The notes: generated by a model not told the origin, from the sequence alone. 64,000 bases of DNA from Escherichia coli (GCF_009931435.1 NZ_CP043414.1), one strand, 5' to 3'. Shown: positions 40,898 to 64,000, counted from the first letter of the stretch. Numbers and translations: made by a program.

Positions 40898-41272
40898 AAC
40901 CAATCAAATATGTTAATTATGTATAAACCATAGACCATTGGTAATTTTATTGTTAATTTATTGTGAAATATTTATGTAACACAATTATTACAATAAAAAG
41001 ACATAGATAAAAAACCAGTGTTTTATTTAACAGAATCGCCTTATCAACTTTTTATAATACCAATTGATTAGAGTAGCCAATTTGTTGCTATTTTACATAA
41101 CATATTTTTATCAAAGTTAATTGATTGTTGCCTTTATGAGCATCGCCGTAAGACCGCCATGTTATTGTTTCATTTGTAATAATCACCAATAAGTATCGAT
41201 GAGAGAGATATCGCTTAACAGAGGCGACTGTGTCTGCATGAACACAGGCAACTTTCGCCTGATAAACGAAAA

Positions 41273-42295: not shown

Positions 42296-42374
42296 TTTTC
42301 TATACAGCCCTGTGTAAAATATTGCTAAACAGTGCCCGGGGTTGATTTTTATTCCTCACGGTGATATTTAAATC

Positions 42375-42797: not shown

Positions 42798-43341
42798 ATC
42801 CACTCTGTACGAACCTGTCCTGCATTTATGCCAGAAGTATTAGAATCTTTGCTTAACGTTACTCATACAGTAGCACCTTCATGTGCCTCTCTTTTTTACG
42901 AAAAATCAAAAGAGCTAACAAAAGTCATTCTTCGCATGAATCATTAATTATTTGTTATTTTCAACATTATTTTTACATTAAGCATATATGAATTGCAGTG
43001 AAATTCGACTTAACTTTTATGAAATGCATTTACTCATGGCTAAAGCCACGTCACAAAAATGCAAATTAGAAGTTGATCACAATTATCTCAATCCATCAAA
43101 TCAAGTTAATTTTAAAAATTTAACATCCATGACATTAGTTGACATAACACGCTGAATTAAAATGAGAATTTAAAAAAACACTTTAAACAATCATTTCCCG
43201 AAAGACATTTTGAAAATAGATCAATTGCAACATTACGGTCAGATAAAGACACTCCTCTGATATTAAACCTGTGCCGTTATGAACGGCCATAAATACGACG
43301 TGTGTAACTTAATTTACTCTCTGTCTTACAAAGGATTACCC

Positions 43342-43791
43342 ATGAAGAAAGCAACACTTGTGATTGGCGTTATTGGCGCGGACTGCCATGCAGTAGGCAA
43401 TAAAGTTCTGGACCGCGTTTTTAGCAACCATGACTTCAGAGTCATTAATCTGGGCGTAATGGTCAGCCAGGACGAATATATTGATGCTGCCATTGAAACT
43501 GGCGCTGACGCGATTGTCGTCTCCTCTATCTATGGGCATGGCGATATCGATTGTCTGGGCATGCGCGAACGCTGCATCGAGCGTGGGCTGGGTAACATCC
43601 TGCTCTATGTGGGCGGTAACCTGGTGGTCGGAAAACATGACTTCGCTGACGTGGAAACCAAGTTCAAAGAGATGGGATTTGATCGCGTCTTTTCCCCAAG
43701 TCATGACTTAGAAGATGTTTGTCAGCTGATGGCCCACGATATCAACCAACGTCATGACGTTGATACTCGCATTCTTGAAGAGGCAATCTGA
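43342..43791 (+). CDS. glutamate mutase sigma subunit (B12-binding subunit)
   Basis: ORF 43279-43791; start placed at ATG 43342 after AAAGGA; [18 protein letters not shown] resembles the clostridial MutS/GlmS cobalamin-binding motif. Confidence 0.88.
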
Positions 43792-45179: not shown

Positions 45180-45197
45180 CAATTAAGGCTGCAATCA

Positions 45198-47884: not shown

Positions 47885-47887
47885 CAA

Positions 47888-49258
47888 ATGGCTCGTTCTT
47901 TTAAAGTCTTATCGCCAACGGCAATCCTCGGGTATGGATTCCCGGAAGAGAGCTTCCGCAAAGCGATGGCAGAATCGCCCGATCTGATCGCCGTTGATGC
48001 AGGCTCTTCCGATCCTGGCCCCCACTACCTCGGGGCGGGCAAACCGTTTACCGATCGCGCAGGGGTCAAGCGCGATCTGCGCTATATGATCACCGCAGGC
48101 GTGCAAAATAATATACCGGTGGTGATCGGAACGGCCGGCGGTTCTGGTGCCGCTCCACACCTGGAGTGGTGCCGAGAAATAATTCATGAGATTGCCCGGG
48201 AAGAGCACCTCGCGTTCTCGATGGCGCTGATCCCGGCAGACGTTGACAAAGCCATCGTCCACCAGGCGCTGGATAACGGCAAAATCACAGCGCTGGATTT
48301 TGTCCCGCCGTTAACCCACGACGCGATTGACGAAAGTACGTATATCGTCGCGCAAATGGGCATCGAACCCTTCCAGCAGGCGCTGAAAGAAGGCGCGCAA
48401 GTGGTGCTGGGCGGGCGCGCTTACGACCCGGCCTGCTTTGCTGCGCTACCGATCATGCAAGGCTTTGATGAAGGTCTGGCGCTGCATTGTGGGAAAATCC
48501 TTGAATGCGCGGCAATCGCCGCAACGCCCGGCTCAGGCTCTGACTGTGCGATGGGCATCATTGATGACAACGGCTTTACGCTGAAGACATTTAATCCGAA
48601 GCGTAAATTTACCGAAACGTCAGCGGCTGCACACACACTGTATGAGAAATCCGATCCCTACTTCCTGCCAGGACCTGGCGGCGTGTTGAACCTGAAAGGC
48701 TGCACATTTAAAGCGGTCAATGACGGCGAAGTGTACGTCAGCGGTTCTAAGCATGAAGAAACGCCGTATGCCCTGAAACTGGAAGGTGCGCGGCGGGTGG
48801 GCTTCCGCTGTCTGACCATCGCAGGAACGCGCGACCCGATCATGATCGCCGGGATCGATAAAATCATCGATGAAGTCAAAACCAGCGTTTCGCGTAACCT
48901 GTCGCTCGACGATGACAGCATTCGCATCAATTTCCACCTGTACGGCAAAAACGGGGTGATGGGCGACCATGAACCGATGCAAACTGCCGGGCATGAGCTG
49001 GGGATTGTCCTTGATGTAGTTGCACCGACCCAGGATATTGCCAATAGCGTTTGCTCGCTGGTGCGCTCTACCATGCTGCACTACGGCTATGAAAACCGCA
49101 TCGCTACCGCAGGCAACCTGGCGTTCCCGTTCTCCCCTTCTGATATCCAGGGCGGGCCGGTATACGAATTTTCCATATATCACCTGATTGAAGCCAACGA
49201 CGCTCTGCGTTTTGATTTCCATATTGAACAGGTGACGCCAGAAGGAGTTCAGGCATGA
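47888..49258 (+). CDS. conserved protein of unknown function, tentatively DUF1446 / AtuA-like
   Basis: 456 aa ORF 3 nt after the lyase gene; family assignment from memory of an LIAVDAGSSDPGP-type N-terminal pattern. Confidence 0.7.
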   Translation: MARSFKVLSPTAILGYGFPEESFRKAMAESPDLIAVDAGSSDPGPHYLGAGKPFTDRAGVKRDLRYMITAGVQNNIPVVIGTAGGSGAAPHLEWCREIIHEIAREEHLAFSMALIPADVDKAIVHQALDNGKITALDFVPPLTHDAIDESTYIVAQMGIEPFQQALKEGAQVVLGGRAYDPACFAALPIMQGFDEGLALHCGKILECAAIAATPGSGSDCAMGIIDDNGFTLKTFNPKRKFTETSAAAHTLYEKSDPYFLPGPGGVLNLKGCTFKAVNDGEVYVSGSKHEETPYALKLEGARRVGFRCLTIAGTRDPIMIAGIDKIIDEVKTSVSRNLSLDDDSIRINFHLYGKNGVMGDHEPMQTAGHELGIVLDVVAPTQDIANSVCSLVRSTMLHYGYENRIATAGNLAFPFSPSDIQGGPVYEFSIYHLIEANDALRFDFHIEQVTPEGVQA

Positions 49259-49572
49259 AACAGTCAATTGTCTCACTGGCGCAAGTCATTCGTTCGAAAA
49301 ATGCCGGACCTTACGAACTGGTTTTAGATATTTTATTTAAAACGAAAGAAAACTATGAGCGAGTAAAATCATCAGGGCAATTAACCCCAGAACTGATTGC
49401 GCGCTTATATCATGTTGAACCTGACTTTATTCATCGTATTGTCTGGTTTGATCCTTCTAACGCAGTAAAAATTGTCATGCCACGAGATATTATCTCCGGG
49501 AATGTAGGTGACAATGATGTCTATGGCGCACAGCAACATGCACCTTTATTAAATATGAGTTTCGATTTGTAA
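49255..49572 (+). CDS. small conserved protein, tentatively DUF4387-like partner
   Basis: 105 aa ORF overlapping the preceding gene by 4 nt (ATGA coupling). Confidence 0.7.
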   Translation: MKQSIVSLAQVIRSKNAGPYELVLDILFKTKENYERVKSSGQLTPELIARLYHVEPDFIHRIVWFDPSNAVKIVMPRDIISGNVGDNDVYGAQQHAPLLNMSFDL

Positions 49573-49658
49573 AAATCCGAACACTTTTAGCCAACTGACA
49601 TCCCGTCACTTATTGCAGCTCAACACTTCAGCTATTTGTAAGGTTGTTATAGCAGGTA

Positions 49659-49684
49659 GATGCCTGAATCTCTATTCAGGCATC
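49659..49684 (+). other. intra-operon stem-loop (possible attenuator or processing site)
   Basis: 10-bp stem gatgcctgaa / ttcaggcatc with 6-nt loop; no clean U-tract. Confidence 0.3.
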
Positions 49685-49732
49685 CACTTCTCCTGATTCT
49701 GATTTATCGCCGTGCACCTGATGGAGGAAAAA

Positions 49733-51013
49733 ATGAAGAAAATAAGTTTAACCACGATGATTCTTTTGGCGCTGGTACTTGGAATGATTATCGGCGTAGT
49801 GCTCAATAACACTGCTTCACCGGAAACAGCAAAACTCTATGCGCAAGAAATATCGATATTCACGACGATTTTCTTACGACTGATAAAAATGATTATCGCT
49901 CCGTTAGTGGTCTCTACCCTGGTGGTAGGTATTGCTAAAATGGGCGATGCCAAAGCCCTTGGTCGTATTTTTTCTAAAACACTCTTTTTATTTATTTGCG
50001 CCTCATTGCTGTCAATTGCCTTAGGCTTGATAACGGTAAATTTCTTCATGCCAGGCACAGGAATTAATTTTGTTGCACACGGTGCCGAAACCACCGGAGT
50101 GGTCGCGTCAGAACCCTTTACACTAAAAGTATTTATTTCGCATGCTTTCCCCACCAGCATTGTCGATGCCATGGCGCACAATGAAATTTTGCAAATCGTG
50201 GTGTTCTCAATTTTCCTCGGCTGTAGCCTGACGGCGATTGGTGAGAAAGGCAGCGCCATCGTTCACGCCTTAGATTCGCTGGCACATGCCATGTTAAAGC
50301 TCACTGGCTACGTCATGCTCTTCGCTCCCCTGACCGTATTCGCCGCTATTTCAGCATTGATTGCTGAACGAGGACTGGCAGTTATGGTGAGCGCCGGGAT
50401 CTTTATGGGTGAATTTTATTTCACCATGTTATTACTTTGGGTGCTGCTTATCGGTCTGGCCATCGTTTATGTCGGCCCCTGCATCAGACGCCTGACCCGC
50501 GCCCTTTCAGAACCCGCCCTGCTGGCATTTACCACATCCAGTTCTGAAGCTGCTTTTCCGGGAACGCTTGAAAAACTGGAGCAATTTGGCGTTTCCCCCA
50601 AAATTGCCAGCTTTGTCTTACCCATTGGCTACTCATTTAATCTCGTTGGATCAATGGCCTACTGCTCCTTCGCCACAGTTTTCATCGCCCAGGCCTGCAA
50701 TATCCATTTATCCATCGGTGAGCAAATCACCATGCTGTTGATCCTGATGTTGACCTCGAAAGGAATGGCTGGCGTACCACGCGCCTCAATGGTGGTTATC
50801 GCCGCCACGCTCAACCAGTTCAATATTCCGGAAGCGGGGCTGATCTTGCTGATGGGCGTTGATCCGTTCCTTGATATGGGGCGTTCCGCGACAAACGTCA
50901 TGAGCAACGCAATGGGCGCTGCGATGGTGAGTCGGTGGGAAGGCGAACATTTCGGCGAGGGCTGTCGGGGTAAAGCATTAAAACCCAATGAATCGAACGT
51001 TGCTCTGCCCTGA
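49733..51013 (+). CDS. dicarboxylate/amino acid:cation symporter (DAACS, GltP/DctA family)
   Basis: ORF 49712-51013; start placed at ATG 49733 after GGAGG; polytopic membrane protein. Confidence 0.85.
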   Translation: MKKISLTTMILLALVLGMIIGVVLNNTASPETAKLYAQEISIFTTIFLRLIKMIIAPLVVSTLVVGIAKMGDAKALGRIFSKTLFLFICASLLSIALGLITVNFFMPGTGINFVAHGAETTGVVASEPFTLKVFISHAFPTSIVDAMAHNEILQIVVFSIFLGCSLTAIGEKGSAIVHALDSLAHAMLKLTGYVMLFAPLTVFAAISALIAERGLAVMVSAGIFMGEFYFTMLLLWVLLIGLAIVYVGPCIRRLTRALSEPALLAFTTSSSEAAFPGTLEKLEQFGVSPKIASFVLPIGYSFNLVGSMAYCSFATVFIAQACNIHLSIGEQITMLLILMLTSKGMAGVPRASMVVIAATLNQFNIPEAGLILLMGVDPFLDMGRSATNVMSNAMGAAMVSRWEGEHFGEGCRGKALKPNESNVALP

Positions 51014-51120
51014 GGGGGATCTTAAGCAATCAGAAGCCAATGACTACGCATTTTTATAAGCCGGATCATGAAGTTAGACGGCAATTAAGTAACACTAACG
51101 TTTAAGGTGAAAAGTGAAAT

Positions 51121-52773
51121 ATGTCCAAACCATTTATCTGGCAAGAACCGTTTCTACAAAATAAAGACGGTACAGAATATACATTAATTAGCGATCAACA
51201 TATTACAGTAACGGAATTAGACGGCGAAGAAGTAATAAAAATCGCTCCTGAAGCATTAACGCTGCTTGCCCGGCAGGCATTTTATGAAGCCTCTTTTTTC
51301 TTACGTTCCGCTCATTTGCAACAGGTCGCCAGCATTCTTAACGATCCGCAGGCCAGCAGTAATGATAAATACGTTGCGTTGCAGTTATTACGTAATGCTG
51401 AAGTCTCAGCAAAAGGGGTATTACCCAACTGTCAGGATACCGGCACCGCAACTATTGTTGCCAGTAAAGGGCAACAGATATGGACGGGAGGTAACGACGC
51501 TGAAGCCTTAAGCAAAGGCATTTACAGTACTTTCCAGGAAAATAATCTGCGCTTTTCACAAAATGCGCCGCTGGATATGTATACCGAAGTCAATACGCAA
51601 ACCAATCTTCCGGCGCAGATTGATATCAGCGCTGTCGCTGGTAATGAGTACCATTTTCTCTGTGTTAATAAAGGGGGCGGCTCCGCCAATAAAGCCGCAC
51701 TTTATCAGGAAACCAAATCCTTATTGCAACCAGAAAAACTGACCGCATTTTTAATCGACAAAATGAAATCGTTGGGCACGGCCGCCTGCCCGCCCTACCA
51801 CATCGCCTTTGTCGTCGGAGGGCTTTCAGCCGATCAAACCTTAAAAGTTGCCAAGCTGGCCTCTACGAAATATTACGACAATTTGCCCACCAGCGGAAAC
51901 GAGCAGGGACAAGCATTCCGTGATATTGAGCTGGAAAAAGCGTTGCTCGAGGCCAGTCAGCAATTTGGTATTGGTGCGCAATTTGGGGGTAAATATTTCG
52001 CTCATGATATTCGCGTCATTCGTCTGCCGCGTCACGGTGGCTCTTGCCCGATAGCTATGGCGCTCTCCTGTTCTGCCGATCGCAATATCAAAGCAAAAAT
52101 TAACAAGCATGGTATCTGGCTGGAAAAACTCGAACACAATCCGGGGCAATATATTCCAGCCTCACTGCGGGAAGAAAATCACGCGCAACATGTACAGCTG
52201 GATCTAAACCGTCCGTTGCGTGACGTGATGCAGGATCTCGCCAGATTACCGGTAGGTACCCGCGTGTCGTTAAGTGGTCCCATCGTAGTGGCGCGCGATA
52301 TCGCCCACGCAAAAATAAAAGCGCGGCTGGATAGCGGCGAATCGATGCCGGATTACCTGAAGCATCATATTGTCTATTACGCTGGCCCGGCGAAAACACC
52401 GGAGAACATGGCCTGCGGTTCACTGGGTCCAACCACGGGCGGTCGAATGGACGGTTATGTCGAAACCTTCCAGGCGGCTGGCGGCAGTCTGGTAATGTTA
52501 TCGAAAGGTAACCGCAGCCAGCAGGTCACCGATGCCTGTCACAAACATGCAGGCTTCAATCTGGGAAGTATTGGCGGTGCAGCTGCGTTACTGGCGCAAG
52601 AATATGTCAAAAGTCTGCGTTGCCTGGAATACCCGGAGCTGGGTATGGAGGCGGTGTGGATGATGGAAGTGGAAAATCTGCCCGCATTCATCCTGGTTGA
52701 TGATAAAGGCAATAATTTCTTTAGCCAGTTTGAGCAGCAACACCGCTGCGCCAGTTGCCCTGCGGGACATTAA
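51121..52773 (+). CDS. fumD: class I (Fe-S) fumarate hydratase family protein, mesaconase candidate
   Basis: 550 aa ORF, FumA/FumB length and fold; symbol from memory of the O157:H7 cluster. Confidence 0.8.
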
Positions 52774-52782
52774 GGAAAATGA

Positions 52783-53385
52783 ATGGAAGCGCGAATTTCA
52801 ACTGAACGGCATGTGCAGCGCCAACAGAAATTGAAGGAACAGGTCGATACGCGCGTCGCGGCGGCGATAGAGAAAAAAGGGATCTTGATTGTTTTCACCG
52901 GCAACGGCAAAGGGAAATCCACTGCCGCGTTTGGTACTGTGACGCGCGCGGTGGGTCATGGCAAAACGGTGGGGGTTGCGCAGTACATCAAGGGGCAATG
53001 GGACAACGGCGAATACAACCTTCTCCAGCCGCTGGGGGTTGAGTTTCATATTATGGGAACCGGTTTTACCTGGGAGACTCAGAACCGGCAAGCGGATATC
53101 GACGCGGCGAAAGAGGTCTGGTCGGAAAGCAAACGGATGCTGGCTGACAAGCGTTACGACTTAGTGGTGCTTGATGAGCTGACCTATATGCTGGCTTACC
53201 ATTATCTGGACACCGAAGAAGTGATCACTTCTCTGCAAAACCGCCCGGCACAACAAAGTGTCATTGTCACCGGACGCAGTTGCCACAGTCAGATATTAAA
53301 AATGGCGGATACGGTCAGCGAAATCCGCCCCGTCAAACATGCTTTTGATAACGGCATTCAGGCGCAGCCGGGTATCGACTGGTAA
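52783..53385 (+). CDS. cob(I)alamin adenosyltransferase, CobA/BtuR family paralog
   Basis: 200 aa ORF with P-loop IVFTGNGKGKSTAAFG; close to remembered K-12 BtuR. Confidence 0.85.
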   Translation: MEARISTERHVQRQQKLKEQVDTRVAAAIEKKGILIVFTGNGKGKSTAAFGTVTRAVGHGKTVGVAQYIKGQWDNGEYNLLQPLGVEFHIMGTGFTWETQNRQADIDAAKEVWSESKRMLADKRYDLVVLDELTYMLAYHYLDTEEVITSLQNRPAQQSVIVTGRSCHSQILKMADTVSEIRPVKHAFDNGIQAQPGIDW

Positions 53386-53418: not shown

Positions 53419-54324
53419 TTACATCTCCTGCGGTACGACCGATTTCGCCAGCAACCATTCACGAAATTGCTGCAAGTGCGGCGAGTCAGACTTCTCTTCC
53501 TGCCACGTCATAATAAAACGATTACCGGTACGAATAGGCACATCACAGGGAATCACCATATCGCCACTATCCAAATCATGTTGAATAGCGAACCGTGGTA
53601 ACAGCGCCACGCCGAGATTAGAGCGCACGGCGGCAATCAGCATTGAAAGCAAATCGAAACGTGGTCCGTTATTGACCAGCGGACTGCTAACGCCAGATAA
53701 AGCAAACCACTCTTCCCAGCCAGTAATACGGGTGCTTTGATGCAGAAGTGGTAACTCAGTAAGCAGTTCTGCCACTGACAGTTTTTGATCGGACATTGCA
53801 AGCAAACTGCCGCTGCATACCGGCAAAATCTCCTCTTCAAAGAGATATTCTACTTCCGCCCAGGGCGCGCAAAAATTTTCGCGCATAATGACAGCATCGT
53901 ACTCCCGATTAAGAAAATCGCCGTTATTAGCTAAAGAATGAATATTAACAATAATATCGGGATGTAACTTTGTGAATTCATGTAAATTTGGGATTAACCA
54001 GTGGGTACTAAACGTAGGATTAACGGCAAGTTCAATAACCTGAACCGTAGGCTGCCAGGTCATAATCGTATTGGTATCGCGCTCCAATTTATTTAATGTT
54101 TCTTTTACTATCCCCAGGTAATACTTCCCTGCATCATTAAGAAAAATGCGTTTTTTAGAGTGTGAAAATAACGGAGTATGTAAAAATTCCTCCAACGCAC
54201 TTACTTGTCTGAATACTGCACTTTGGGTTAACGCTAACTCCTCTGCCGCTCTGGTATAACTTTCATGACGTGCGACGACCTCAAAAGTCACCAGCAGCTC
54301 CGTTTTAGGTATTTTTCCTCGCAT
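53419..54324 (-). CDS. LysR-family transcriptional regulator
   Basis: 301 aa ORF, N-terminal HTH (ESYTRAAEELALTQSAVFRQVSALEEFL). Confidence 0.85.
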   Translation of the reverse strand: MRGKIPKTELLVTFEVVARHESYTRAAEELALTQSAVFRQVSALEEFLHTPLFSHSKKRIFLNDAGKYYLGIVKETLNKLERDTNTIMTWQPTVQVIELAVNPTFSTHWLIPNLHEFTKLHPDIIVNIHSLANNGDFLNREYDAVIMRENFCAPWAEVEYLFEEEILPVCSGSLLAMSDQKLSVAELLTELPLLHQSTRITGWEEWFALSGVSSPLVNNGPRFDLLSMLIAAVRSNLGVALLPRFAIQHDLDSGDMVIPCDVPIRTGNRFIMTWQEEKSDSPHLQQFREWLLAKSVVPQEM

Positions 54325-54480
54325 AATGCCGTCCCTTAAAAATAGTTTAAACCATCAAAAATACATTACTTATTACGAAGTAATGGTAACCAAAGCAGCA
54401 ATAAATAATTTATAAGAATCATGATTAACATTTATAACCCAGTAAGCCTGGCGTGACAATTATCTTAATCAGATAATAAT

Positions 54481-54509
54481 AATCCGAAAAGCACAGCACC
54501 TTTCGGATT
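54481..54509 (-). terminator. hairpin downstream of the HAL-like gene (weak terminator candidate)
   Basis: Stem atccgaaa / tttcggat with 11-nt loop, followed on the minus strand by ATTATTATTAT. Confidence 0.35.
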
Positions 54510-54594
54510 ATCAGGAATTACATTAAGTGAAAATTATTAAATTGATATCATTTATCATATCTGTGGATATAATGATAAACAATCAACATAGATT

Positions 54595-56265
54595 TTATTT
54601 TTGATTTATAGCATATCCCTCTAAGAATTTTTGCGATGCTTCAATATCCGGGGTAAAGACCCGATCCTGACTGACAAATGGCACGACTTGACGATAAGCG
54701 GTGAACATCGCTTTTGTTGATTTGCCTAACGCCAGCTGTGGATCGGCTTGCAAGCGCAAATCAATCGCCTGGGCAGAATGCATCAGTTCAATGCCATAAA
54801 TGACATTCAAATTATCAACAACCTGTTTCAATCTTCTCGCCGCGTGGTCGTTATTGGCACCCGTATCTTCAATGCCTCCGGCTACCGGTTGAATATCGAA
54901 AGAAACCGGGTTAGCGAGATCGACATTTTCCGCATGCAGCGCAACAAACGGGATATGTAATGAACCGAAGCCATGACCTTTATTACCTGCTGCCGACAGG
55001 AAGCGTGACAAACCGGTAAAGTGATCATCTTCAAGATGCAGCGAGCGGCGCATACTGTTATGTGAAACATGCACTAACGCCACGGTCAGACGCTGGGTGG
55101 CAAGCGCAACCGGTAACGATTCGAAATTCGCCGTCGGGAAGATCCCACCGCTGATTGCCCCATCTTTAACAAAATATTGCGCGACCTGACTGGAGTCCTG
55201 ATACGCTTTGTCTGCATTCAGCACGGTTGCCGGGTTGTCATCGGAACTGTTGATCTGCACGGTAATGGTATCTTCAGCATCGCGCAACGCGCGCATTGCC
55301 TCAGAAATGGTATACACCGTCGTTCTGAACGATAACGGATCCTGCAATGCACGTTTGTCATCCTTATGCCATAAATAAGAACCACTTAACGCATCGCGAA
55401 TCTCTTTAGCGGAATCAGCCAACTGCGGGAAAGGACGCACGGCGATCGACTGCGGCAGTACCGGCGCGACATTGCCATTCAACGCTTCGAGGCTCATGGC
55501 GAAAACCACCGGACTGACATTCAGCACCTGGCGTGCCGACCGTACCGCTTCAATTGCATATGCTGTTCCGACACTGTTGTTCGACAAAATCGCCAGCATA
55601 TCTTTACCCTGCGGGACCAGTGGTTTAAGCCCCACTTTCACCAGCGCATCGCCACCACTCATTTCCACGCCATTAACCCGCGCTTTCCACTCGCCCATCA
55701 TCACCAGACCAACGTGTGAAGCGAGCATAATATCCGCTGCGCCGATACTTCCCCGCGCCGGAATTAACGGCGTAACGCCTCGATTAATAAACTCGGCATA
55801 CAACTCGGCAATATAAGGCTGCGCGCCGGTTTGCCCATGCAACATAGTATTTAAACGTAACACCATTGAGAGACGGGCAAGATAATCCGGCAACATCGGA
55901 CCGACGCCCGCAGAATGGGCGCGCAGCGCGGCAGCATTAAATTTTTTCGATGCGTCAATCACCTCAGGCGTTAAATTTCCTTTGGCATCAAATATGGGCT
56001 GATCTTTATTTAGCCCCACGCCCACGGTTAAGCCATAAACAGGCGTACCTGAATGCGCGGCAGTCATCACCAGATCATAACTTTTTTCCATGCGCTCCAT
56101 GGCGTTCGACGCGATTTTGACGCCGTTATCACCTAATGCAATTGACCAGGCCTGGTCAATAGAGAGATGTTCGCCATCCAGCGTAATGGTTGATTTTGCC
56201 ATCGCGATGGAGCAAACGCTCCAGAGCACAACGGTGACAGTGACTCTGCGTATCAATCCTTTCAT
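54595..56265 (-). CDS. aromatic amino acid lyase (HAL/PAL) fold protein lacking the MIO triad, signal-peptide-like N-terminus
   Basis: 556 aa ORF; conserved GSVGASGDLAPLAH block reads GSIGAADIMLASH (codons checked at 55729-55752); N-terminus MKGLIRRVTVTVVLWSVCSIAMA; AAGGA 6 nt upstream of ATG 56265. Confidence 0.8.
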   Translation of the reverse strand: MKGLIRRVTVTVVLWSVCSIAMAKSTITLDGEHLSIDQAWSIALGDNGVKIASNAMERMEKSYDLVMTAAHSGTPVYGLTVGVGLNKDQPIFDAKGNLTPEVIDASKKFNAAALRAHSAGVGPMLPDYLARLSMVLRLNTMLHGQTGAQPYIAELYAEFINRGVTPLIPARGSIGAADIMLASHVGLVMMGEWKARVNGVEMSGGDALVKVGLKPLVPQGKDMLAILSNNSVGTAYAIEAVRSARQVLNVSPVVFAMSLEALNGNVAPVLPQSIAVRPFPQLADSAKEIRDALSGSYLWHKDDKRALQDPLSFRTTVYTISEAMRALRDAEDTITVQINSSDDNPATVLNADKAYQDSSQVAQYFVKDGAISGGIFPTANFESLPVALATQRLTVALVHVSHNSMRRSLHLEDDHFTGLSRFLSAAGNKGHGFGSLHIPFVALHAENVDLANPVSFDIQPVAGGIEDTGANNDHAARRLKQVVDNLNVIYGIELMHSAQAIDLRLQADPQLALGKSTKAMFTAYRQVVPFVSQDRVFTPDIEASQKFLEGYAINQK

Positions 56266-56315
56266 TGTGTTTCCTTATTTTGATGAGTTTAACAACGGAT
56301 TACTGCAACAACCTC

Positions 56316-57266
56316 TTAATTTGTTTTATCTGTTTTTCCTCGACGGACAATAGTGGCAGCCAGGCGAGCGGCAACCTTCGCGGTCAAATTATCGCGGTCC
56401 AAATCTGGGTTCAGTTCGGCAATATCCGCAGCAATCAACTTCTCGCTACCGGCAATTAAATTCACAATAGCCTCAGCAATATTTAATGGCACGCCTAACG
56501 GCGAAGGCGCAGAAACGCCAGGAGCCTGATAACCCGGTAAGACATCAAGACAAATCGTTAAATAAATGGCGTCACACGCCTGAATATCTGCCGAGAGCGC
56601 ATTAACAATCTCATGCAAACCACGTTCAAATTGCAGAGATTCATCCAGCCAATAACGCACACCAGGACAATCAGCACGATCAAATAACGCCTGAGTGTTG
56701 GCATAACGGCTTATTCCCAGCACGCGATAATGAAACGGTTTGCCATGCTGCGCATTCCACTCCTGCATCTGCCGAAACGGCGTACCCGAATTGGCCTTTT
56801 CCGCCATCCGCAAATCAAAATGCGCGTCAAGGTTGACTATCAGCAGTCGCCGAATATCCGGACGCGACTGCATAATCCCCTGAAATGTTCCCCATGCCAC
56901 TTCATGACCGCCGCCCAGAACGACCGGCAAACTGCCGCGCGCAATTGCCATAGCCACGTTTTCCGCCAGACGGTTTTGTGCGGGTTCCAGCGCGTGGTCT
57001 TCGCTTTGCACGTCACCCATGTCAAAAATAGCGCCTTCATGGAGCACTGGCATATTGCCCAACATGCTGCGTAATGCGCCCGGTCCGCCTGCTGCGCCCG
57101 CTCGCCCACCGTTACGTTGCACCCCGTCATCGACGGCAAAACCAATCAGCGTACTGCCTCCATGACTTTGTTCGGTAAACGGTTTTACATGCTGATGCCA
57201 GCGGGTGCTGACGCCAGTTTCCTGCGAGTCAACACGTCCACTCCATGCCATAAATGTTTGCTTCAT
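56316..57266 (-). CDS. hutG: formimidoylglutamase
   Basis: ORF 56316-57305; start placed at ATG 57264-57266 overlapping hutI stop (TAATG); arginase-fold motifs GGGHE and DAHFD. Confidence 0.85.
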   Translation of the reverse strand: MKQTFMAWSGRVDSQETGVSTRWHQHVKPFTEQSHGGSTLIGFAVDDGVQRNGGRAGAAGGPGALRSMLGNMPVLHEGAIFDMGDVQSEDHALEPAQNRLAENVAMAIARGSLPVVLGGGHEVAWGTFQGIMQSRPDIRRLLIVNLDAHFDLRMAEKANSGTPFRQMQEWNAQHGKPFHYRVLGISRYANTQALFDRADCPGVRYWLDESLQFERGLHEIVNALSADIQACDAIYLTICLDVLPGYQAPGVSAPSPLGVPLNIAEAIVNLIAGSEKLIAADIAELNPDLDRDNLTAKVAARLAATIVRRGKTDKTN

Positions 57267-58477
57267 TACCAACTCCTTTTTCCGCCGACAATCAGCCCCA
57301 GACAAGGCTGATGTCCAAACCAGTAAGCCAGCTCACGCGGATGATTAAGATCCCAAACAGCCATATCCGCCCGTAGTCCCGGCGCAAGTTCACCCCGATC
57401 AACAAGTCCAAGCGCTTTTGCCGCATGACGTGTAACGCCCTGAACGGCTTCCAGCGGGGTCATGTGAAACAGCGTACAGGCCATATTGATCATCAACTGC
57501 AATGACATGTTGGGAGACGTTCCGGGGTTATGATCCGTGGAGATGGCAATCGGCACACCTGCGGCCCGCAGAGCGACAATCGGCGGCAGATGGGTTTCGC
57601 GCAGGAAGTAATAAGCACCGGGAAGCAAAACCGCCACTGTTCCAGCCGCTTTCATGGCGGCGATCCCCGACTCGCTCAGGTACTCCAGATGATCGCAGGA
57701 GAGTGCAGAAAACGCCGCTGCCAGCGCCGCGCCTTGCTGGTCAGAAAGCTGTTCGGCATGCAGTTTTACAGGTAATCCATAGCTTTGCGCTTTACTGAAA
57801 ACGCGCCGTACCTGCTCTGGAGTAAAGGCGATGTTTTCACAAAAAGCATCAACTGCATCAATCAGCCCCTGTTCATGCAACACGCACATCCAGTCGCAAA
57901 GCGCCGTAATGTAATCATCACTGCGCCCGGCAAACTCTGGCGGCAGGCTGTGCGCCCCGAGAAACGTAGACTGAATATGTAACCCGGTAGATTGCTGCAA
58001 GCGGCGGATCACGCGTAAACAACGCGCTTCATCTTCCAGCGTTAAGCCATAACCCGATTTGATTTCAAGCGTACTGACGCCTTCACGTTGCCAGTTTCGC
58101 AGTCGCTGCGCCGCCAGTTCAAACAGCTGTGTTTCGCTGGCTGCCCGCGTGGCATTAACCGTAGATAAGATCCCGCCGCCCGCTCTGGCGATATCTTCAT
58201 AAGCCACGCCTTGCAACCGCATCTCAAACTCGTTCGCCCTCTGGCCGCCATACACCAGATGTGTATGACAATCTACCAGACCGGGTGTCAGCAACTTACC
58301 CTGTAGATCGTGTTCTTCTGTAATATCAGCCGTCAGTTCACGGGGGATCTGCGTGGCCTTCCCAAGCCAGACAATCGAGTCACCGCGGCTGATTAATGCA
58401 CCGTTTTCAATCACCCCCCAATCATTAGCCGAAAGCGTCGTCAGGGTGGTATTTCGCCAGAGCGTAAATGCACTCAT
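57266..58477 (-). CDS. hutI: imidazolonepropionase
   Basis: ORF 57266-58513; start placed at ATG 58477 (MSAFTLWRNTTL) overlapping hutD stop (ATGA); amidohydrolase DCHTHL motif. Confidence 0.85.
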   Translation of the reverse strand: MSAFTLWRNTTLTTLSANDWGVIENGALISRGDSIVWLGKATQIPRELTADITEEHDLQGKLLTPGLVDCHTHLVYGGQRANEFEMRLQGVAYEDIARAGGGILSTVNATRAASETQLFELAAQRLRNWQREGVSTLEIKSGYGLTLEDEARCLRVIRRLQQSTGLHIQSTFLGAHSLPPEFAGRSDDYITALCDWMCVLHEQGLIDAVDAFCENIAFTPEQVRRVFSKAQSYGLPVKLHAEQLSDQQGAALAAAFSALSCDHLEYLSESGIAAMKAAGTVAVLLPGAYYFLRETHLPPIVALRAAGVPIAISTDHNPGTSPNMSLQLMINMACTLFHMTPLEAVQGVTRHAAKALGLVDRGELAPGLRADMAVWDLNHPRELAYWFGHQPCLGLIVGGKRSW

Positions 58478-59064
58478 AAGGATTTTTCCCCTCGTAGATA
58501 ATAAATCCACCAACCCGCCAGCTCGCCGACGGAGACTTTTTGCTGTGGTACGAAACGCCAGGAGTTGCCATCAGGCGCAAACCGCCATAACAACGTATTC
58601 GCCGTTACAAACACCCTGTTCTCGCCGCTTATCCACTCCCCTTCACACAGCGTGAACAGCCCCGCTTGCGCATGCGCCGGAGGGAGCCAGTCAATGACGC
58701 TTTGCACACGACGCATCCCCGCATCGCCTTCCCGCGCCATAATATTCAGATCGCGAACCCCGCCGCCCAGCAGCTGACAATCAGGCATTGCTTCTCCAGG
58801 GAAAATTAAGGCGGGATCGTGACGTTGCAGGTTGATGATCGAATCGGCAAACGTTAGCTTCACCCCTTCCCCGTCGAGGATCGCGAGGCCACGAACCACG
58901 CCAGGCCACGCTGAAAAAGGGCCATCCTGACTGACATTCGCCATACTGATGCGCAACAACCAGTTTTCATCATCGGGCCAGGCAAGCAGCTGTCGGGTAA
59001 ACCCCCCGCCGTTGCGCCACGGTTGCAGCGGCTTATCCATTGCAGAAATCAGCATCGGTTCCAT
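58474..59064 (-). CDS. hutD: HutD-family protein
   Basis: 196 aa ORF with WRNGGGFTRQL, matching the HutD N-terminal signature. Confidence 0.8.
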   Translation of the reverse strand: MEPMLISAMDKPLQPWRNGGGFTRQLLAWPDDENWLLRISMANVSQDGPFSAWPGVVRGLAILDGEGVKLTFADSIINLQRHDPALIFPGEAMPDCQLLGGGVRDLNIMAREGDAGMRRVQSVIDWLPPAHAQAGLFTLCEGEWISGENRVFVTANTLLWRFAPDGNSWRFVPQQKVSVGELAGWWIYYLRGEKSL

Positions 59065-59065
59065 A

Positions 59066-60475
59066 TTAAGACTCGGGATAAATCGTATAAGCAGGAACGC
59101 AGGTGGTGCGTTTGGCCCACGGGTAATAGATAACGGCGGTAATTAACAAGCCGACAATCCAGGAGATATCCGCCCCATCCATCAGGACAGAAATGGGTCC
59201 CTGATACAGTTTTTGATTCAGGAAGGGGATCTGCACCAACACGCCTACGCCATAGCACGTCAAAGCGGTTTTGTTATACGCGCCATAACGCCCTTCCGGG
59301 GTATAAAGCGCTGGAATATCGGTTTTACCTTGTGAGATGAAGTAATAATCGATGAGATTAATGGCACTCCACGGAACAAATACCGTCAACAGTAGCAGAA
59401 CGAAGTTTTTGAAATTATTCAAAAAATCTGCGCTTGCCGCCAGCGCGACGACCATCGACAACAGCACGAACCCTACAACGTAGGCAGCACGAACACGCTG
59501 TGAAACCTGACTGCGATCATTAAAGGCGCTGACGGTCGCCAGAATCGACATAAAGCCACCGTAGGCATTCAAACAGTTCACCGTCAGTTTGCCGCAAACA
59601 ATCACCATATAAATCAGAATGGCGAAGGTGGGTCCGGCTAACTCGCCCATAAAACCAACCTGATCCTTCAGGAAGTTAGCACCACAGGCCGCAACAAGTA
59701 CGCCAAACGTCATGGCACATTGCGCACCAAGCGTGGTTCCCAGAAAGGTGGCAAAGAAGATTGATTTTGCTGGCGTATCAGAGGGTAAATAGCGGGAATA
59801 ATCAGAGGCGTAAGGGGCAAACGTTAATTGCCATCCGGCAGAGAGAGCAATCGTTAATAAAAAGACCGACAGACTAAATGGCTTTTGACCAAATGCCGCA
59901 GCCACATCGTAGTGACCGCTAAGTTGAGTGGCCAGGTAAATAAACCCCAGAATACTTAATATCCCTGCAACACGGCCAACGACGTGAATTAGTTTATAAC
60001 CGACCAATGCGATCATCGCGGTCAGCATGCCGAAAATAATAATTCCGGTCGATGCCGATTCGAAACCAAATATCCGGTTAATCGCCTGACCGGATAATAC
60101 TGTACCCGTCGCGGCAAATCCAAGGTACATAATAATCACCATCAGTAACGGTAGCGCCGCTCCTTTAACGCCAAAGCGGATACGACTGGAGATCATCTGG
60201 GGTAATCCCAGCTTTGCCCCCTGCGACGAGTGCAATGCCATTACTGCACCACCAATAATATTACCGATTAATAAACCAATTATTGCTGACATAGCTTCGG
60301 AGCCAAAAATAATCGCTAACGCGCCGTCCACCACTGCGGTAATTTGTAAGTTAGCACTTAGCCATAAAGTAAACTGACTAGATGGCGCGCCGTGGCGAGC
60401 AGACTCAGGAACGGCGTTAATCGTATTTGATTCTAATACTGGCTTTTTACTGCGGATAGGGCTGCTTGATTCCAT
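59066..60475 (-). CDS. NCS1-family permease (CodB-like)
   Basis: ORF 59066-60520 starts on TTG; start placed at ATG 60475 with AGGAG 8 nt upstream; CodB-like RFGVKGAALP segment. Confidence 0.8.
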   Translation of the reverse strand: MESSSPIRSKKPVLESNTINAVPESARHGAPSSQFTLWLSANLQITAVVDGALAIIFGSEAMSAIIGLLIGNIIGGAVMALHSSQGAKLGLPQMISSRIRFGVKGAALPLLMVIIMYLGFAATGTVLSGQAINRIFGFESASTGIIIFGMLTAMIALVGYKLIHVVGRVAGILSILGFIYLATQLSGHYDVAAAFGQKPFSLSVFLLTIALSAGWQLTFAPYASDYSRYLPSDTPAKSIFFATFLGTTLGAQCAMTFGVLVAACGANFLKDQVGFMGELAGPTFAILIYMVIVCGKLTVNCLNAYGGFMSILATVSAFNDRSQVSQRVRAAYVVGFVLLSMVVALAASADFLNNFKNFVLLLLTVFVPWSAINLIDYYFISQGKTDIPALYTPEGRYGAYNKTALTCYGVGVLVQIPFLNQKLYQGPISVLMDGADISWIVGLLITAVIYYPWAKRTTCVPAYTIYPES

Positions 60476-60638
60476 GAAAAAGTCTCCTGCAAAATGAGAG
60501 GTCATTTTTTGAAACAGCAATAGAGGGTCGGGAGATATTTTTCTCGACGATGTAAAAATATTTTTTGATAATTATTGTTATACAGGCGAATTATTCTCCG
60601 CCTGTATTAGCGCAAATATTAAATGACGGCGTTAATAT

Positions 60639-62336
60639 TTAGCGAATCATCGGTAATTTCAGACCATAGTTTTTGGCACATTCAATTGCCGCTTCATAAC
60701 CCGCATCCGCATGACGCATAACCCCGGACGCACAGTCATTCACCAGCACACGCGCCAGACGTTTTTCGGCTTCTTCGCTACCATCGGCAACAATAACCAT
60801 CCCGGCGTGTTGTGAATACCCCATCCCGACGCCGCCGCCATGATGCAGGGATACCCACGTTGCTCCCCCTGCAGTGTTGAGCAAACCGTTGAGCAACGGC
60901 CAGTCAGAAACCGCATCACTGCCATCAAGCATGCTTTCGGTTTCGCGGTTCGGGCTGGCGACAGAACCGGTATCAAGATGATCGCGCCCAATCACAATCG
61001 GTGCTTTTAGTTCACCGTTGCGCACCATTTCGTTGAATGCCAGCCCCGCCAGGTGACGCTCACCAAGCCCCAGCCAGCAAATACGTGAAGGAAGTCCCTG
61101 GAAGGCAATGCGCTCGCGCGCCATATCCAGCCAGCGATGCGTCAGTACGTTATTGGGGAACAACTCTTTAATTTTGGCATCGGTTTTATAGATATCTTCC
61201 GGGTCGCCAGACAGCGCCACCCAACGGAATGGACCTTTGCCTTCACAAAACATTGGACGAATATAAGCCGGAACAAAGCCCGGGAAATCAAAGGCATTTT
61301 GCAGACCTTCGTTGAAGGCCACCTGGCGGATGTTGTTGCCATAATCGACAACCGGGATCCCCATCGCCTGGAAGTCCAGCATCCCCTGAACATGTGCGAC
61401 GCAGCTCTGTGCCGCTTCTTTTTGCAATCTGGCGTGTTGCTGTGGATCCTGCTGTGCAGCGCGCCATTGTTCTACGCTCCAGCCCATCGGTAGGTAGCCA
61501 TAAACCAGATCGTGAGCGGAAGTCTGGTCGGTTACCAGATCCGGCTTAATCGCCCCCTGATGCGCACGTTTCACCAGCTCAGGAACAATTTCCGCCGCAT
61601 TGCCCAACAGCGCGATTGAAACAGCGTCTTTGCGCTCGGTATGGTATTTAATCAGCGCCAGTGCATCATCAAGATCTTTCGCTTGTTTATCGACATAACG
61701 GGTACGCAGTCGGAAGTCGATGCTACTTTGCTGGCACTCGATATTTAATGAGCACGCCCCCGCCAGAGTCGCCGCCAGCGGTTGTGCGCCACCCATACCA
61801 CCGAGCCCCGCGGTCAGGATCCATTTTCCACTCAGCGAATTGTTGTAGTGCTGACGACCCGCTTCAACAAAGGTTTCGAACGTTCCCTGCACAATGCCCT
61901 GACTACCGATGTAGATCCACGAGCCAGCGGTCATCTGGCCGTACATGAACAGACCTTTACGATCCAGTTCATTGAAATGATCCCAGTTGGCCCATTGCGG
62001 TACCAGGTTAGAGTTGGCAATCAATACGCGCGGCGCATCGGTATGCGTTTTAAACACGCCTACGGGTTTACCGGACTGAACCAGCAGTGACTCATCAGCT
62101 TCCAGATTTTTCAGTGATTCAAGGATCTTGTCAAAACACTCCCAGTTACGTGCCGCACGACCAATACCACCATACACCACCAGATGCTGTGGATTTTCGG
62201 CAACGTCGGGATCAAGGTTGTTCTGCAACATCCGGTAGGCTGCTTCAATTTGCCAGTTTTTGCAGTGCAGCTGCGTACCGTGTGGCGCATGGATTACACG
62301 GCTGGTATCAATACGCGGGTCTGAAGGCTTACTCAT
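60639..62336 (-). CDS. hutU: urocanate hydratase
   Basis: ORF 60639-62435; start placed at ATG 62336 ([12 protein letters not shown]) with AGGAG upstream, 565 aa; long identity runs with remembered HutU ([33 protein letters not shown]). Confidence 0.88.
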
Positions 62337-62402
62337 GAATCTTCTCCTGTTACTTGATAAAATTAAACGCTGTAATCGGTCAGAAAAAACGAACGAATGA
62401 AT

Positions 62403-62419
62403 ATAGAAACGGTTTCTAT
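62403..62419. promoter_or_regulatory. candidate operator palindrome upstream of hutU
   Basis: atagaaac-g-gtttctat, 8-1-8 perfect dyad about 70 bp upstream of hutU start. Confidence 0.3.
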
Positions 62420-62454
62420 AATTCCCGTTTATCATTTTGTATTATTAATTCATT

Positions 62455-62487
62455 TAGTGAATATTGTTTGTCTTGGTATATTCACTA
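62455..62487. promoter_or_regulatory. candidate operator inverted repeat upstream of hutU
   Basis: tagtgaatat-N13-atattcacta, perfect 10-bp arms. Confidence 0.3.
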
Positions 62488-63093
62488 TGAATATAAATTC
62501 AAAACCACCAACGCGTTGTATGCGAATTCAATATGCTTAATTTAACTTGTCGAAAAAGTGATATTGTTGGCAAAATATTTTCTAATTTGAACATATGAAT
62601 ATGATGAGATTGCAAGATGTCAGTAATTTAATTATCTAAGAAATGCGTTAATAACGACCAGATATTAGCGTAACAACAGGTGTTCCGACACCACACAGTG
62701 CGCATAACACAATGATATTTAAAATAAGATCTTCATTATTCGTCATAAAGACATGTTTTATTATCATTAATAATCCATTTGTTTTCATCCCACTTTTGAT
62801 AATTAAAAAACGGCAACAATGGCTAGTTACCCGACGTAAAAATAGGCGTAAAAATAAATCTTAAAATATATCCACTGGAAATTATCATTTTTCATATTTT
62901 ACAATCTGGCGTCGATAACTTACCCCTTTTATAACACCCCCGTTTGTTAATAGTCTTTTTTATCTTGTATTGATCGTCATTGCTGCATACACTACGCGCG
63001 TTTTCTTTCCCTTTTGCTGGCTGCTGACCGGAAAGACAAAATTACCCTCGCAATACAGGGGGTTGATTAACGTCTATATTTCAGGACAGCGTT

Positions 63094-64000
63094 ATGCATC
63101 ATCTTTCAAGGCTTGATAAAGCCTTTCTGCGCAAAGGGATCCAACTTTCCCGCGCCAACAATATTGTTTCATTATGTCGTCCATCAGGAGCCAGTGCCCG
63201 CGTACTGCTGCCGGACGAACTGCCGCTGGAAGAAAAAGCAGTGACACAACTGCTTGATTTTGCAGAAGTGAAGATACCAGGCCATCCAGGTTACGTACGC
63301 CAGACGTGCGCGACGCCAGATTTTCATCCCGGCAATGGCGTCCCCGTTGGCGCGGTGGTGGCCTCAACGCCGGATTTAGTCATTCCCGCCGCCATCGGCA
63401 CCGATATTTCTTGTGGCATGCGGCTGCTGACGACCGGATTAACCCTTGAGCAAGCCGAAGCGAATAAAGAAATAATCACTCAGCGGTTAACACAAGTGTT
63501 ACTGCAGAATGAGCGCGATGTTCCGTTATCCGCACGAGCGTTCACCGCGCTTTTTGATGGCGGACCGGCAGATTGCATGTCGGCCTTGCCATCAGCAGGT
63601 CTCTGGACACGTACAAATATCCCCCGGATGACGCAAGAGATTGACCGCTGCATTGGGCTTAACGAGCATAACAGTCATTCGCGTTATGCCCCCACCTGCC
63701 CTGCTGGCAACGGACCGCGCATTACTCCGCGATCCTTGTCTTGGTACGCCGGGTTCAGGTAATCATTTTATTGAACTTCAGGTCGTTGATAGCGTGGTTG
63801 ATCGCCATGTAGCCTGGCAACAAGGGCTGAAAACAGGCGATATTGTGGTGATGATCCACAGTGGATCGCGAGATGTTGGCTTTTACGTCGGAAGACGCTG
63901 GATGGATCGCGCCCGTGCTGAATGGCCCACCGGACATAAACATCCACAAAGCGGGTTATATGGTCTGGCAGGCGGACTGGCGGAGGAATATCTACAAGCG
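63094..64000 (+). pseudogene. RtcB-family RNA ligase homolog, apparent frameshift, runs off window
   Basis: Frame 1 carries PDFHPGNGVPVGAV and stops at 63762; frame 2 opens at 63632 and carries LGTPGSGNHFIEL and HSGSRDVG; C5 run at 63688-63692 lies in the overlap. Confidence 0.65.

Follow-up and report, generated by a model that had tools for sequence, protein, structure and literature searches.

A six-gene hut-like operon of Escherichia coli with a predicted periplasmic MIO-less lyase and its possible role in the use of histidine betaine

We describe here a hut-like operon located in a 64,000-nucleotide stretch of Escherichia coli DNA (GCF_009931435.1, NZ_CP043414.1), referred to below as the window. 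It consists of six co-oriented genes, all on the minus strand: hutU, an NCS1 permease gene, hutD, hutI, hutG, and a gene for a lyase of the histidine ammonia-lyase (HAL) family that is devoid of the precursor of the 4-methylideneimidazole-5-one (MIO) cofactor (Table 1). This order, already proposed in a preliminary description of the locus, agrees with the coordinates and strands, and the same six genes are annotated in RefSeq on an E. coli chromosome of 99.5% identity, where the permease is named 'cytosine permease' and the lyase 'HAL/PAL/TAL family ammonia-lyase'. The translational coupling claimed for two gene pairs could be read directly in the DNA, as hutD and hutI overlap in ATGA, and hutI and hutG in TAATG; the NCS1 stop codon lies 1 nt ahead of a hutD ATG (the hutD start is annotated at 59055 or 59064, depending on the genome). 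The lyase gene is the last one, following hutG after a 50-nt gap, and its stop codon is followed by a terminator-like hairpin (16-bp stem, -19.1 kcal/mol, z = -5.15) with a U-rich tract, and thus the operon ends there. At the other end, hutU starts at ATG 62336, behind an AGGAGA ribosome-binding site; a 598-aa open reading frame (ORF) running from 62435 was rejected as an over-extension of this annotated start. Therefore, both palindromes found in this region lie upstream of hutU and not within it.

Table 1. Features of the hut-like operon and of its immediate surroundings, in window coordinates
Feature	Position	Strand	Basis or remark
Inverted repeat TAGTGAATAT-N13-ATATTCACTA	62455-62487	not applicable	Centre ~135 nt upstream of the hutU ATG; candidate operator
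Inverted repeat TATAGAAAC-N-GTTTCTATA	62402-62420		Centre ~75 nt upstream of the hutU ATG; candidate operator or 5'-untranslated-region hairpin
hutU, urocanate hydratase (565 aa)	60639-62336	-	NCBIfam hutU equivalog
NCS1 permease, HutTu-like, putative urocanate importer (469 aa)	59066-60475	-	PF02133/NCS1
hutD (HutD/Ves bicupin family)	58474-59055/59064	-	Pfam PF05962, E 3.8e-31
hutI, imidazolonepropionase	57266-58477	-	NCBIfam TIGR01224 equivalog
hutG, formimidoylglutamase (arginase fold)	56316-57266	-	NCBIfam TIGR01227 equivalog
MIO-less HAL-family lyase, putative periplasmic histidine-betaine trimethylammonia-lyase (556 aa)	54595-56265	-	
Predicted signal peptide MKGLIRRVTVTVVLWSVCSIAMA, residues 1-23	56197-56265	-	Predicted cleavage between AMA and KS
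Lyase codons 175-178 (G-A-A-D) at the HAL G-A-S-G-D site	55732-55743	-	Alignments
Lyase codons His437-Ile438, equivalent of T. denticola ergothionase Gln-Lys384	54952-54957	-	Alignments
Terminator-like hairpin 3' of the lyase stop	54477-54513	-	
LysR gene	53419-54324	-	270 bp downstream of the lyase

The lyase is a member of PF00221. In a phmmer comparison with solved structures in the PDB, the best match was the ergothionase of Treponema denticola (Td_ETL, 6s7j; E = 1.4e-86), whereas the HAL of Pseudomonas putida was matched with E = 3.5e-48. An AlphaFold2 (AF2) model of the protein (predicted local distance difference test score, pLDDT, 84.9) also had 6s7j as its top Foldseek match, with TM 0.81/0.90 for this predicted structure. 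Both HutH models failed, with 277 bits for TIGR01225 (cutoff 539) and 295 bits for NF006871 (cutoff 524). The MIO site reads GSIG-A-A-DIMLASH in the lyase against GSVG-A-S-G-DLAPLAH in HAL, which amounts to a one-residue deletion removing the Ser-Gly pair, and the identical deletion is found in Td_ETL, Swoo_3913 of Shewanella woodyi and the other Shewanella enzymes. The lyase had been called 'MIO-less' before, and this holds, as G-A-A-D replaces the G-A-S-G-D of HAL in the alignments; what had been overlooked is the signal peptide and the link to trimethylammonia-lyases of the ergothionase type. The catalytic Tyr77, together with His117, Gln308, Arg314, Asn339 and Glu466, is retained and invariant across the homolog alignment; equivalent residues serve in proton abstraction, carboxylate binding and imidazole binding (10.1101/2025.08.13.670108). 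On these sequence grounds, the lyase is assigned to the MIO-less trimethylammonia-lyases, i.e. the ergothionase/histidine-betaine lyase branch of PF00221, a family which a representative search showed to be very large.

The lyase begins with MKGLIRRVTVTVVLWSVCSIAMA, followed by KS, which, judged by eye and by homology, is a typical export signal. Because there is an AAGGA ribosome-binding site before the long ATG and none before the internal Met22, because almost every Gram-negative homolog has a leader too, and because relatives have been found experimentally in the periplasm, we infer that the lyase is exported to this compartment. The N-terminus predicted for the mature protein can be aligned with that of mature Swoo_3913, a periplasmic enzyme; residues 1-22 are disordered in the AF2 model, and the Enterococcus homologs have no leader. 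One might still assume that the lyase is a working histidase and that the locus is an ordinary histidine-utilisation operon with a divergent HutH, as some RefSeq records name the gene hutH and the HAL imidazole- and carboxylate-binding residues are conserved. Nevertheless, there is no MIO precursor, the 295 bits obtained against a HAL cutoff of 524 are too few, the protein carries a signal peptide, and the related MIO-less Swoo_3913 is inactive on L- and D-histidine. A histidase thus seems extremely improbable, and the RefSeq label hutH is very likely wrong.

The remaining enzymes of the operon are of the ordinary kind. HutU reaches 934 bits with the NCBIfam hutU equivalog (cutoff 375), whereas the models of thiourocanate hydratase (670 bits) and S-methyl-thiourocanate hydratase (671 bits) are left below their cutoffs of 930 and 880, respectively; it is also 83% identical to HutU of Comamonas testosteroni. 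HutI scores 452 bits with TIGR01224 (cutoff 298) and HutG 288 bits with TIGR01227 (cutoff 229), so in this test for a canonical Hut regulon all three proteins are above the NCBIfam equivalog cutoffs. This strong family assignment indicates that HutU, HutI and HutG would be the usual enzymes of the unsubstituted pathway and that, with hutG, the operon would encode its four-step variant leading to glutamate and formamide. On the other hand, no canonical HutH or HutC had been recognized in the window, and tblastn finds neither. Over the 64 kb, the sole match of Comamonas HutH is the MIO-less lyase (28% identity), and no GntR/UTRA protein was revealed by two GntR/UTRA queries of the HutC type. Neither gene is annotated in the flanks of the 99.5% identical genome. 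Just past the window end, where hutH and hutC might still have been expected, that genome continues with nothing but an RtcB gene followed by sucDCBA, sdh and gltA; the other flank contains a methylaspartate-pathway cluster, cyd, tol-pal, gal and mod.

In its canonical form, the Hut system of Klebsiella and Salmonella is arranged as hutUH and hutIGC, and that of Pseudomonas and Comamonas includes a HutTu permease. The E. coli operon shares with these systems the four steps through HutU, HutI and HutG, as well as HutD and an NCS1 gene beside hutU; it differs from them by having no MIO-dependent HutH, no HutC repressor and no HutC-type operator, and by an entry step assigned to a secreted lyase. 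In P. fluorescens and P. aeruginosa, hutTu, a betaine-type ATP-binding cassette importer (hutXWV) and hutH1 are inserted between hutU and hutH2, and hutH1 is dispensable for growth on histidine (PMC8871633, PMC8034625). HutH1 of Pseudomonas might be the cytoplasmic counterpart of the E. coli lyase.

The permease was assumed in the preliminary description to bring in the new substrate, and this part of the proposal does not seem to hold. Orthologs of the permease (67-70% identity, from Comamonadaceae and others) adjoin hutU in canonical hut clusters equipped with HutH and HutC. In C. testosteroni the genes run hutC, hutH (with Ala-Ser-Gly), another GntR gene, NCS1, hutU, hutD and hutI, so that the NCS1 ortholog (67% identity) lies between hutC/hutH and hutU. 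The position of the gene is also that of HutTu (PA5099), the urocanate-specific transporter of Pseudomonas (PMC12977541, PMC8034625, PMC7319117). Given the orthologs beside canonical hutU genes and the signal peptide of the lyase, it is probably the product, urocanate, that the permease takes up, and not the substrate. Two other loci are of interest here. A metagenomic contig (L089) has an 81% identical permease ortholog in the arrangement hutU-NCS1-hutI-IclR-hutG-hutD, with no lyase, and at another locus (L086) an 85% identical permease ortholog lies directly upstream of an 85% identical lyase ortholog, without hutU, hutI or hutG. A recurring pair of NCS1 permease and secreted lyase fits the import of a product made outside the cytoplasm.

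It was plausible to look for the substrate of the lyase among those of its characterised relatives. Swoo_3913 converts histidine betaine to urocanate and trimethylamine, and has no activity on L- or D-histidine and nearly none on ergothioneine (10.1101/2025.08.13.670108). SO_3057 of S. oneidensis is a periplasmic ergothionase (10.64898/2026.04.22.720169), and SO_3299 of the same species acts specifically on N(π)-methyl histidine betaine, with no activity towards hercynine, i.e. histidine betaine (10.1101/2025.08.13.670108, 10.64898/2026.04.22.720169). The thiolate of ergothioneine is bound by Lys384 (T. denticola numbering), replacement of which abolishes ergothionase activity; this site is occupied by Asn in Swoo_3913 and by Gln in SO_3299, and in both of these characterised enzymes with a neutral residue ergothioneine is not the main substrate (10.1101/2025.08.13.670108, 10.64898/2026.04.22.720169). 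In the E. coli lyase the site is Ile438, which is not the residue expected of an ergothionase; the preceding Gln is replaced by His437, and the Phe/Tyr beside the Glu-Asp pair by Gly469. Among 120 homologs, [IVL]-Q-K is found at this site in 102 and L/I-H-V/I in 17, the latter group comprising the E. coli and E. marmotae lyases, two proteobacterial proteins from metagenomes (85% and 68% identity) and the cytoplasmic Enterococcus proteins (~60%). The nearest Gram-negative homologs (52-63% identity) are Lys-bearing periplasmic proteins, and in a neighbour-joining tree without support values the L-H-[IV] lyases group together as a single clade, which lies within the Lys-bearing proteins and is distant from Swoo_3913.

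The residues at the Lys384 site vary together with the partner enzymes. A species-level genome collection yielded 197 loci, of which we surveyed the neighbourhoods of the best 80, and found a flavocytochrome at 75 of these, in 74 cases no more than 3 kb from the lyase. Lyases with [IV]-Q-K and IEDT[FY] have a neighbouring flavocytochrome 45-78% identical to SO_3058, a predicted thiourocanate reductase. Those with T-E-D and IEDSA/IEDTA (Sutterellaceae) have a different one (26-32% identical to SO_3058), and those with L-H-[IV] and EDTG have no neighbouring flavocytochrome. Hut genes occur at only one of the 80 loci (L006, an E. coli-like contig binned as Citrobacter), and at the E. coli-type locus there is no flavocytochrome and thus no ergothionase-type reductase partner was found. 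When the features of a Swoo_3913-type module were looked for, the leader and the neutral residue at the Lys384 site were present, while orthology and the adjacent reductase/flavocytochrome were absent. The co-variation across the 80 loci suggests where the choice of substrate is set. Judging from the site and from the partner genes, the lyase would not be an ergothionase; its product should be urocanate, because the partner HutU is a canonical urocanase, and we infer histidine betaine as the substrate.

Some further members of the family were noted in the same survey. The T-E-D lyases (L061, L063-L065, L067-L069, L071-L074 and L081-L083, from Sutterellaceae and relatives), in which T-E-D stands for I-Q-K and IEDSA/IEDTA for IEDTF, look like an uncharacterised specificity class. 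The cytoplasmic L-H-V lyases of Enterococcus (L002-L004, L008-L010) are found in a cluster with a sigma-54 activator, a CoA-transferase (PF01144), an MFS transporter and an NMO/FMN-type reductase, and this may represent a third, CoA-dependent reductive fate of the lyase product. A periplasmic L-H-V lyase, 68% identical to that of E. coli, is present in a Pseudomonas-like organism (L005, Logan SRR17714370 contig, 10001-11659) in a hydroxyproline-catabolism cluster with hydroxyproline epimerase, D-amino-acid dehydrogenase subunits, a dihydrodipicolinate synthase-like protein and an aldehyde dehydrogenase. Apart from chance matches, a scan of metagenome contigs with a degenerate pattern for L-H-[IV] gave one Enterococcus-like copy and otherwise only copies resembling that of E. 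coli, of which one is frameshifted.

Taken together, we lean, by a modest degree, towards a scenario in which the six-gene operon serves the use of histidine betaine (hercynine) and of free urocanate. The lyase, exported by means of its signal peptide, would cleave trimethylamine from Nα-trimethyl-histidine in the periplasm and leave trans-urocanate, a reaction whose chemistry has been shown for relatives of the enzyme; no MIO cofactor would be needed, because trimethylamine is a good leaving group, which makes MIO dispensable (10.1101/2025.08.13.670108, 10.64898/2026.04.22.720169). Orthology and gene context suggest that the HutTu-like NCS1 permease would then import the urocanate. HutU, HutI and HutG would convert it to glutamate and formamide, HutD might play a modulatory role, and trimethylamine would be released as waste. 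The repurposing of a urocanate-pathway module for another imidazole substrate, as it had been put before, is retained here as regards the hut module without HutH and HutC and its MIO-less lyase, and is abandoned as regards the roles of the permease and of a LysR protein. Most likely, the operon serves an imidazole substrate other than histidine, and among the substrates listed in the preliminary description hercynine would be the best candidate.

Several points weigh against this scenario. The scenario was drawn from sequence and a predicted structure, the signal peptide was called by eye and homology, and the permease was likened to HutTu by gene position and its Comamonadaceae orthologs. The lyase is only 39% identical to Swoo_3913, the single proven histidine-betaine lyase, and falls into a separate clade, nested among predicted ergothionases. 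SO_3299 was mispredicted from its neutral residue at the Lys site, so that such a residue is not sufficient to predict hercynine as the substrate. Moreover, the LH[IV] signature is also found in Enterococcus, beside a CoA-transferase and an NMO-type reductase, and in the hydroxyproline cluster of L005, in both cases with no hut genes within 10 kb.

The behaviour of SO_3299 leads to an alternative, namely that the lyase acts on some other Nα-quaternary imidazole amino acid (N(π)- or N(τ)-methyl histidine betaine, or an ovothiol- or selenoneine-derived betaine) and that the Hut enzymes take a substituted urocanate, wholly or partly. SO_3299, which likewise has a neutral residue at that site, acts only on N(π)-methyl histidine betaine and not on hercynine, and the changes in the LH[IV] pocket (Gln to His437, Lys to Ile438, Phe/Tyr to Gly469) could enlarge it. 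We nonetheless consider such a substrate unlikely, given that HutU, HutI and HutG are above the equivalog cutoffs of the unsubstituted pathway, that HutU is so close to the enzyme of C. testosteroni, a standard histidine degrader, and that there is no demethylase gene in the operon.

A different possibility is that the operon only scavenges urocanate by means of the permease and HutU, HutI and HutG, the lyase being a passenger or a non-catalytic periplasmic binding protein. Modules of hutU, NCS1, hutI, hutG and hutD occur without a lyase (L089), the lyase gene is the last one and follows a gap, and relatives of the lyase are found in unrelated contexts. Such a role seems rather improbable, however, as the lyase gene is intact, keeps all the catalytic residues and is under purifying selection (dN/dS 0.07 within E. 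coli), is co-oriented with the operon and followed by the terminator hairpin, and the pair of NCS1 and lyase recurs independently in L086. A periplasmic producer of urocanate beside a urocanate importer is also a coherent design.

The third alternative is that the lyase is an ergothionase which converts ergothioneine to thiourocanate and trimethylamine in the periplasm, that the operon degrades or detoxifies ergothioneine, and that this is the gene behind the 1962 report of such an activity in E. coli. The best solved relative is indeed an ergothionase, the lyase clade is nested among Lys-bearing predicted ergothionases, and according to PMC13405746 (2026) the activity of 1962 has no known homolog in E. 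coli. In addition, a DNA search of 5,426 complete E. coli genomes at megablast sensitivity found no other gene of the ergothionase family and thus no second, Lys-bearing ergothionase. Yet the equivalent of Lys384, the replacement of which abolishes the activity, is Ile438, HutU fits the urocanase model and not that of thiourocanate hydratase, and the operon contains no desulfhydrase or hydantoinase genes. We therefore regard an ergothionase as improbable.

Compared with known systems, the hercynine scenario is closest to Swoo_3913 and the urocanate reductase UrdA of S. woodyi (10.1101/2025.08.13.670108). Both enzymes are periplasmic (in E. coli by prediction) MIO-less lyases of the HAL family with the catalytic Tyr, the carboxylate and imidazole ligands and a neutral residue at the Lys site, and the reaction shown for Swoo_3913, from hercynine to urocanate and trimethylamine, is the one predicted for E. 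coli. They differ in the specificity site, which is Gln-Asn in Swoo_3913 and His-Ile in the E. coli lyase, and in the fate of the product: in Shewanella, urocanate serves respiration as an electron acceptor that is reduced in the periplasm, whereas in E. coli we propose that it is imported and assimilated through HutU, HutI and HutG, with no flavocytochrome. The ergothionases Td_ETL (6s7j) and SO_3057 provide the best match in both sequence and fold, and the nearest homologs are of their Lys-bearing periplasmic type; in contrast to them, the E. coli lyase has Ile for the thiolate-binding Lys, together with further pocket changes, and its partner is a urocanase instead of a thiourocanate hydratase or reductase. 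The cytoplasmic aerobic degradation of ergothioneine proceeds through ergothionase, thiourocanate hydratase, desulfhydrase and hydantoinase. It shares with the E. coli operon the logic of an MIO-less lyase feeding a hydratase of the urocanase family, but it is cytoplasmic and handles sulfur, whereas the E. coli operon has a true urocanase and standard Hut enzymes.

The operon has no linked regulator gene. The two palindromes claimed for the region upstream of hutU are both exact inverted repeats, each unique within the window. A single repeat of this kind is not rare in a spacer with 32% G+C. Of 1,000 Markov simulations, 2% contained two independent repeats, and no simulation placed both of them less than 160 nt from the hutU start, which makes the pair unlikely to have arisen by chance. 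The arms are the same in strains with ~4% divergence of the operon, and two substitutions fall in the N13 spacer, which is weak evidence as it comes from four sequences only. The palindromes were said not to match the HutC operator, and indeed there is no TGTA-N2-TACA core, and hence no HutC-type operator, in the window. No CRP site was found upstream of hutU, nothing in Rfam matched the stretch from 53.3 to 64 kb with E <= 0.1, the folding of the 5' region does not surpass that of shuffled sequences (z = -1.8), and a scan for sigma-70 promoters gave matches no more frequent than by chance and none convincing near hutU. The palindromes may be considered candidate operators for a factor encoded elsewhere.

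A LysR-type protein encoded next to the operon had been suggested as its dedicated regulator, binding both palindromes. On one hand, the gene is adjacent, no other regulator gene is linked to the operon, and the palindromes are non-random. On the other hand, LysR orthologs in Salmonella enterica (85%) and Yersinia enterocolitica (63%) lie without hut genes inside methylaspartate-mutase clusters (methylaspartate mutase, methylaspartase, fumarase, cobO), and LysR is kept without the hut operon in about 1,000 complete E. coli genomes. Moreover, the gene is not divergently placed and is parted from the operon by the terminator hairpin, and the palindromes are found nowhere else in the window, the methylaspartate cluster included. 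There is thus little chance that LysR regulates the hut genes; of the earlier suggestion only the adjacency stands, LysR was rejected as a hut regulator on the grounds of its comparative context and its retention after hut deletion, and by these comparisons it is part of the neighbouring methylaspartate cluster. It should not be assigned to hut in annotation. The methylaspartate (glutamate mutase) cluster itself (~40900-53385, plus strand) contains glmS, glmL, mutase subunit E and methylaspartate ammonia-lyase, together with genes for AtuA-like and DUF4387 proteins, a dicarboxylate symporter, class I fumarase and cobO.

On the opposite side of the operon, an RtcB-family gene (63094-64000, plus strand) is divergent from hutU. 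It has a 1-nt insertion near 63690 in comparison to strain 2020CK-00188, which ends its ORF at 63762 and leaves 222 aa, against 465 aa in that strain, and it is either a pseudogene or the result of a sequencing error. In the intervening spacer, at ~62830-62860, the 12-bp unit TATTTTTACGCC is present in two copies in the window and in three copies in CUVET19-970 and L006.

The full cluster is present in 143 of the 5,426 complete E. coli genomes (2.6%), always on the chromosome and at the same site, and also in E. marmotae; a comparison across genomes, which had been proposed as a check, shows that among the loci surveyed the lyase is paired with hut genes only in Escherichia. K-12 had been described as lacking hut genes; in agreement with this, the K-12-type E. 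coli W has mngRAB at the locus and no hut cluster there. In comparison to a diverged strain, dN/dS amounts to 0.02-0.08 for hutU, NCS1, hutI, hutG and the lyase, and to 0.49 for hutD. For the lyase and its 85% identical homolog in L086, dN is 0.096 and dS is saturated, which gives a dN/dS of about 0.04. Because of this purifying selection, the genes of the operon are functional, with selection relaxed on hutD. A role in defence was rejected, as PADLOC gave no match for the lyase, HutD or NCS1.

Over 54595-62336, synonymous divergence from CUVET19-970 (L093) is 0.04 for NCS1, 0.07 for hutU, 0.11 for hutD, 0.17 for hutI, 0.21 for the lyase and 0.41 for hutG, while the 757-bp spacer between hutU and rtcB is ~99% identical; the ten-fold range along the operon suggests a recombination mosaic. 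In O157:H7 strain 8368 (L091, 7200-7389), 137 bp of the 3' end of the lyase gene and a 62-bp internal fragment, corresponding to 54595-54732 and 55075-55136 of the window, have been left beside sucD. This is a deletion scar, and the hut operon has thus been lost and not simply never gained. A different deletion, which places LysR beside RtcB, is found in another lineage (L092), and a metagenome contig (L097, VOFH01003339.1, 565-2103) carries a lyase copy next to LysR with several frameshifts, indicating gene decay in some lineages.

A broader proposal, which we put a little short of an even chance, is that a subset of E. coli, together with E. marmotae, has a complete assimilatory route for histidine betaine, that its lyase clade arose from periplasmic ergothionases independently of the S. 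woodyi enzyme, and that the gene of this lyase stands alone as a candidate for the 'ergothionase of E. coli' reported in 1962. The lyase is an ergothionase homolog in E. coli, contrary to the statement in PMC13405746, and the 1962 report thus becomes testable.

In the literature searched we found no description of an E. coli hut cluster or of an MIO-less lyase coupled to Hut enzymes. The components, that is the Hut pathway, a HutTu-type permease and the MIO-less trimethylammonia-lyases, are known, and it is their combination that is new in this literature. The only reports on hercynine lyases, preprints of 2025-2026, place the enzyme with a periplasmic urocanate reductase in anaerobic respiration (10.1101/2025.08.13.670108). 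If our interpretation is true, there would be a second fate for these lyases, assimilation rather than anaerobic respiration, in which the substrate is cleaved outside the cytoplasm and the cell then takes up the product. Trimethylamine N-oxide (TMAO), which is linked to cardiometabolic disease, derives from trimethylamine produced by gut bacteria, for which choline, carnitine and betaines are the recognised sources. Under the same condition, hercynine of dietary or fungal origin, and possibly oxidised ergothioneine, would give rise to gut trimethylamine in the strains concerned, and a strain-variable E. coli operon would add both a source of this compound and a genetic marker for it.

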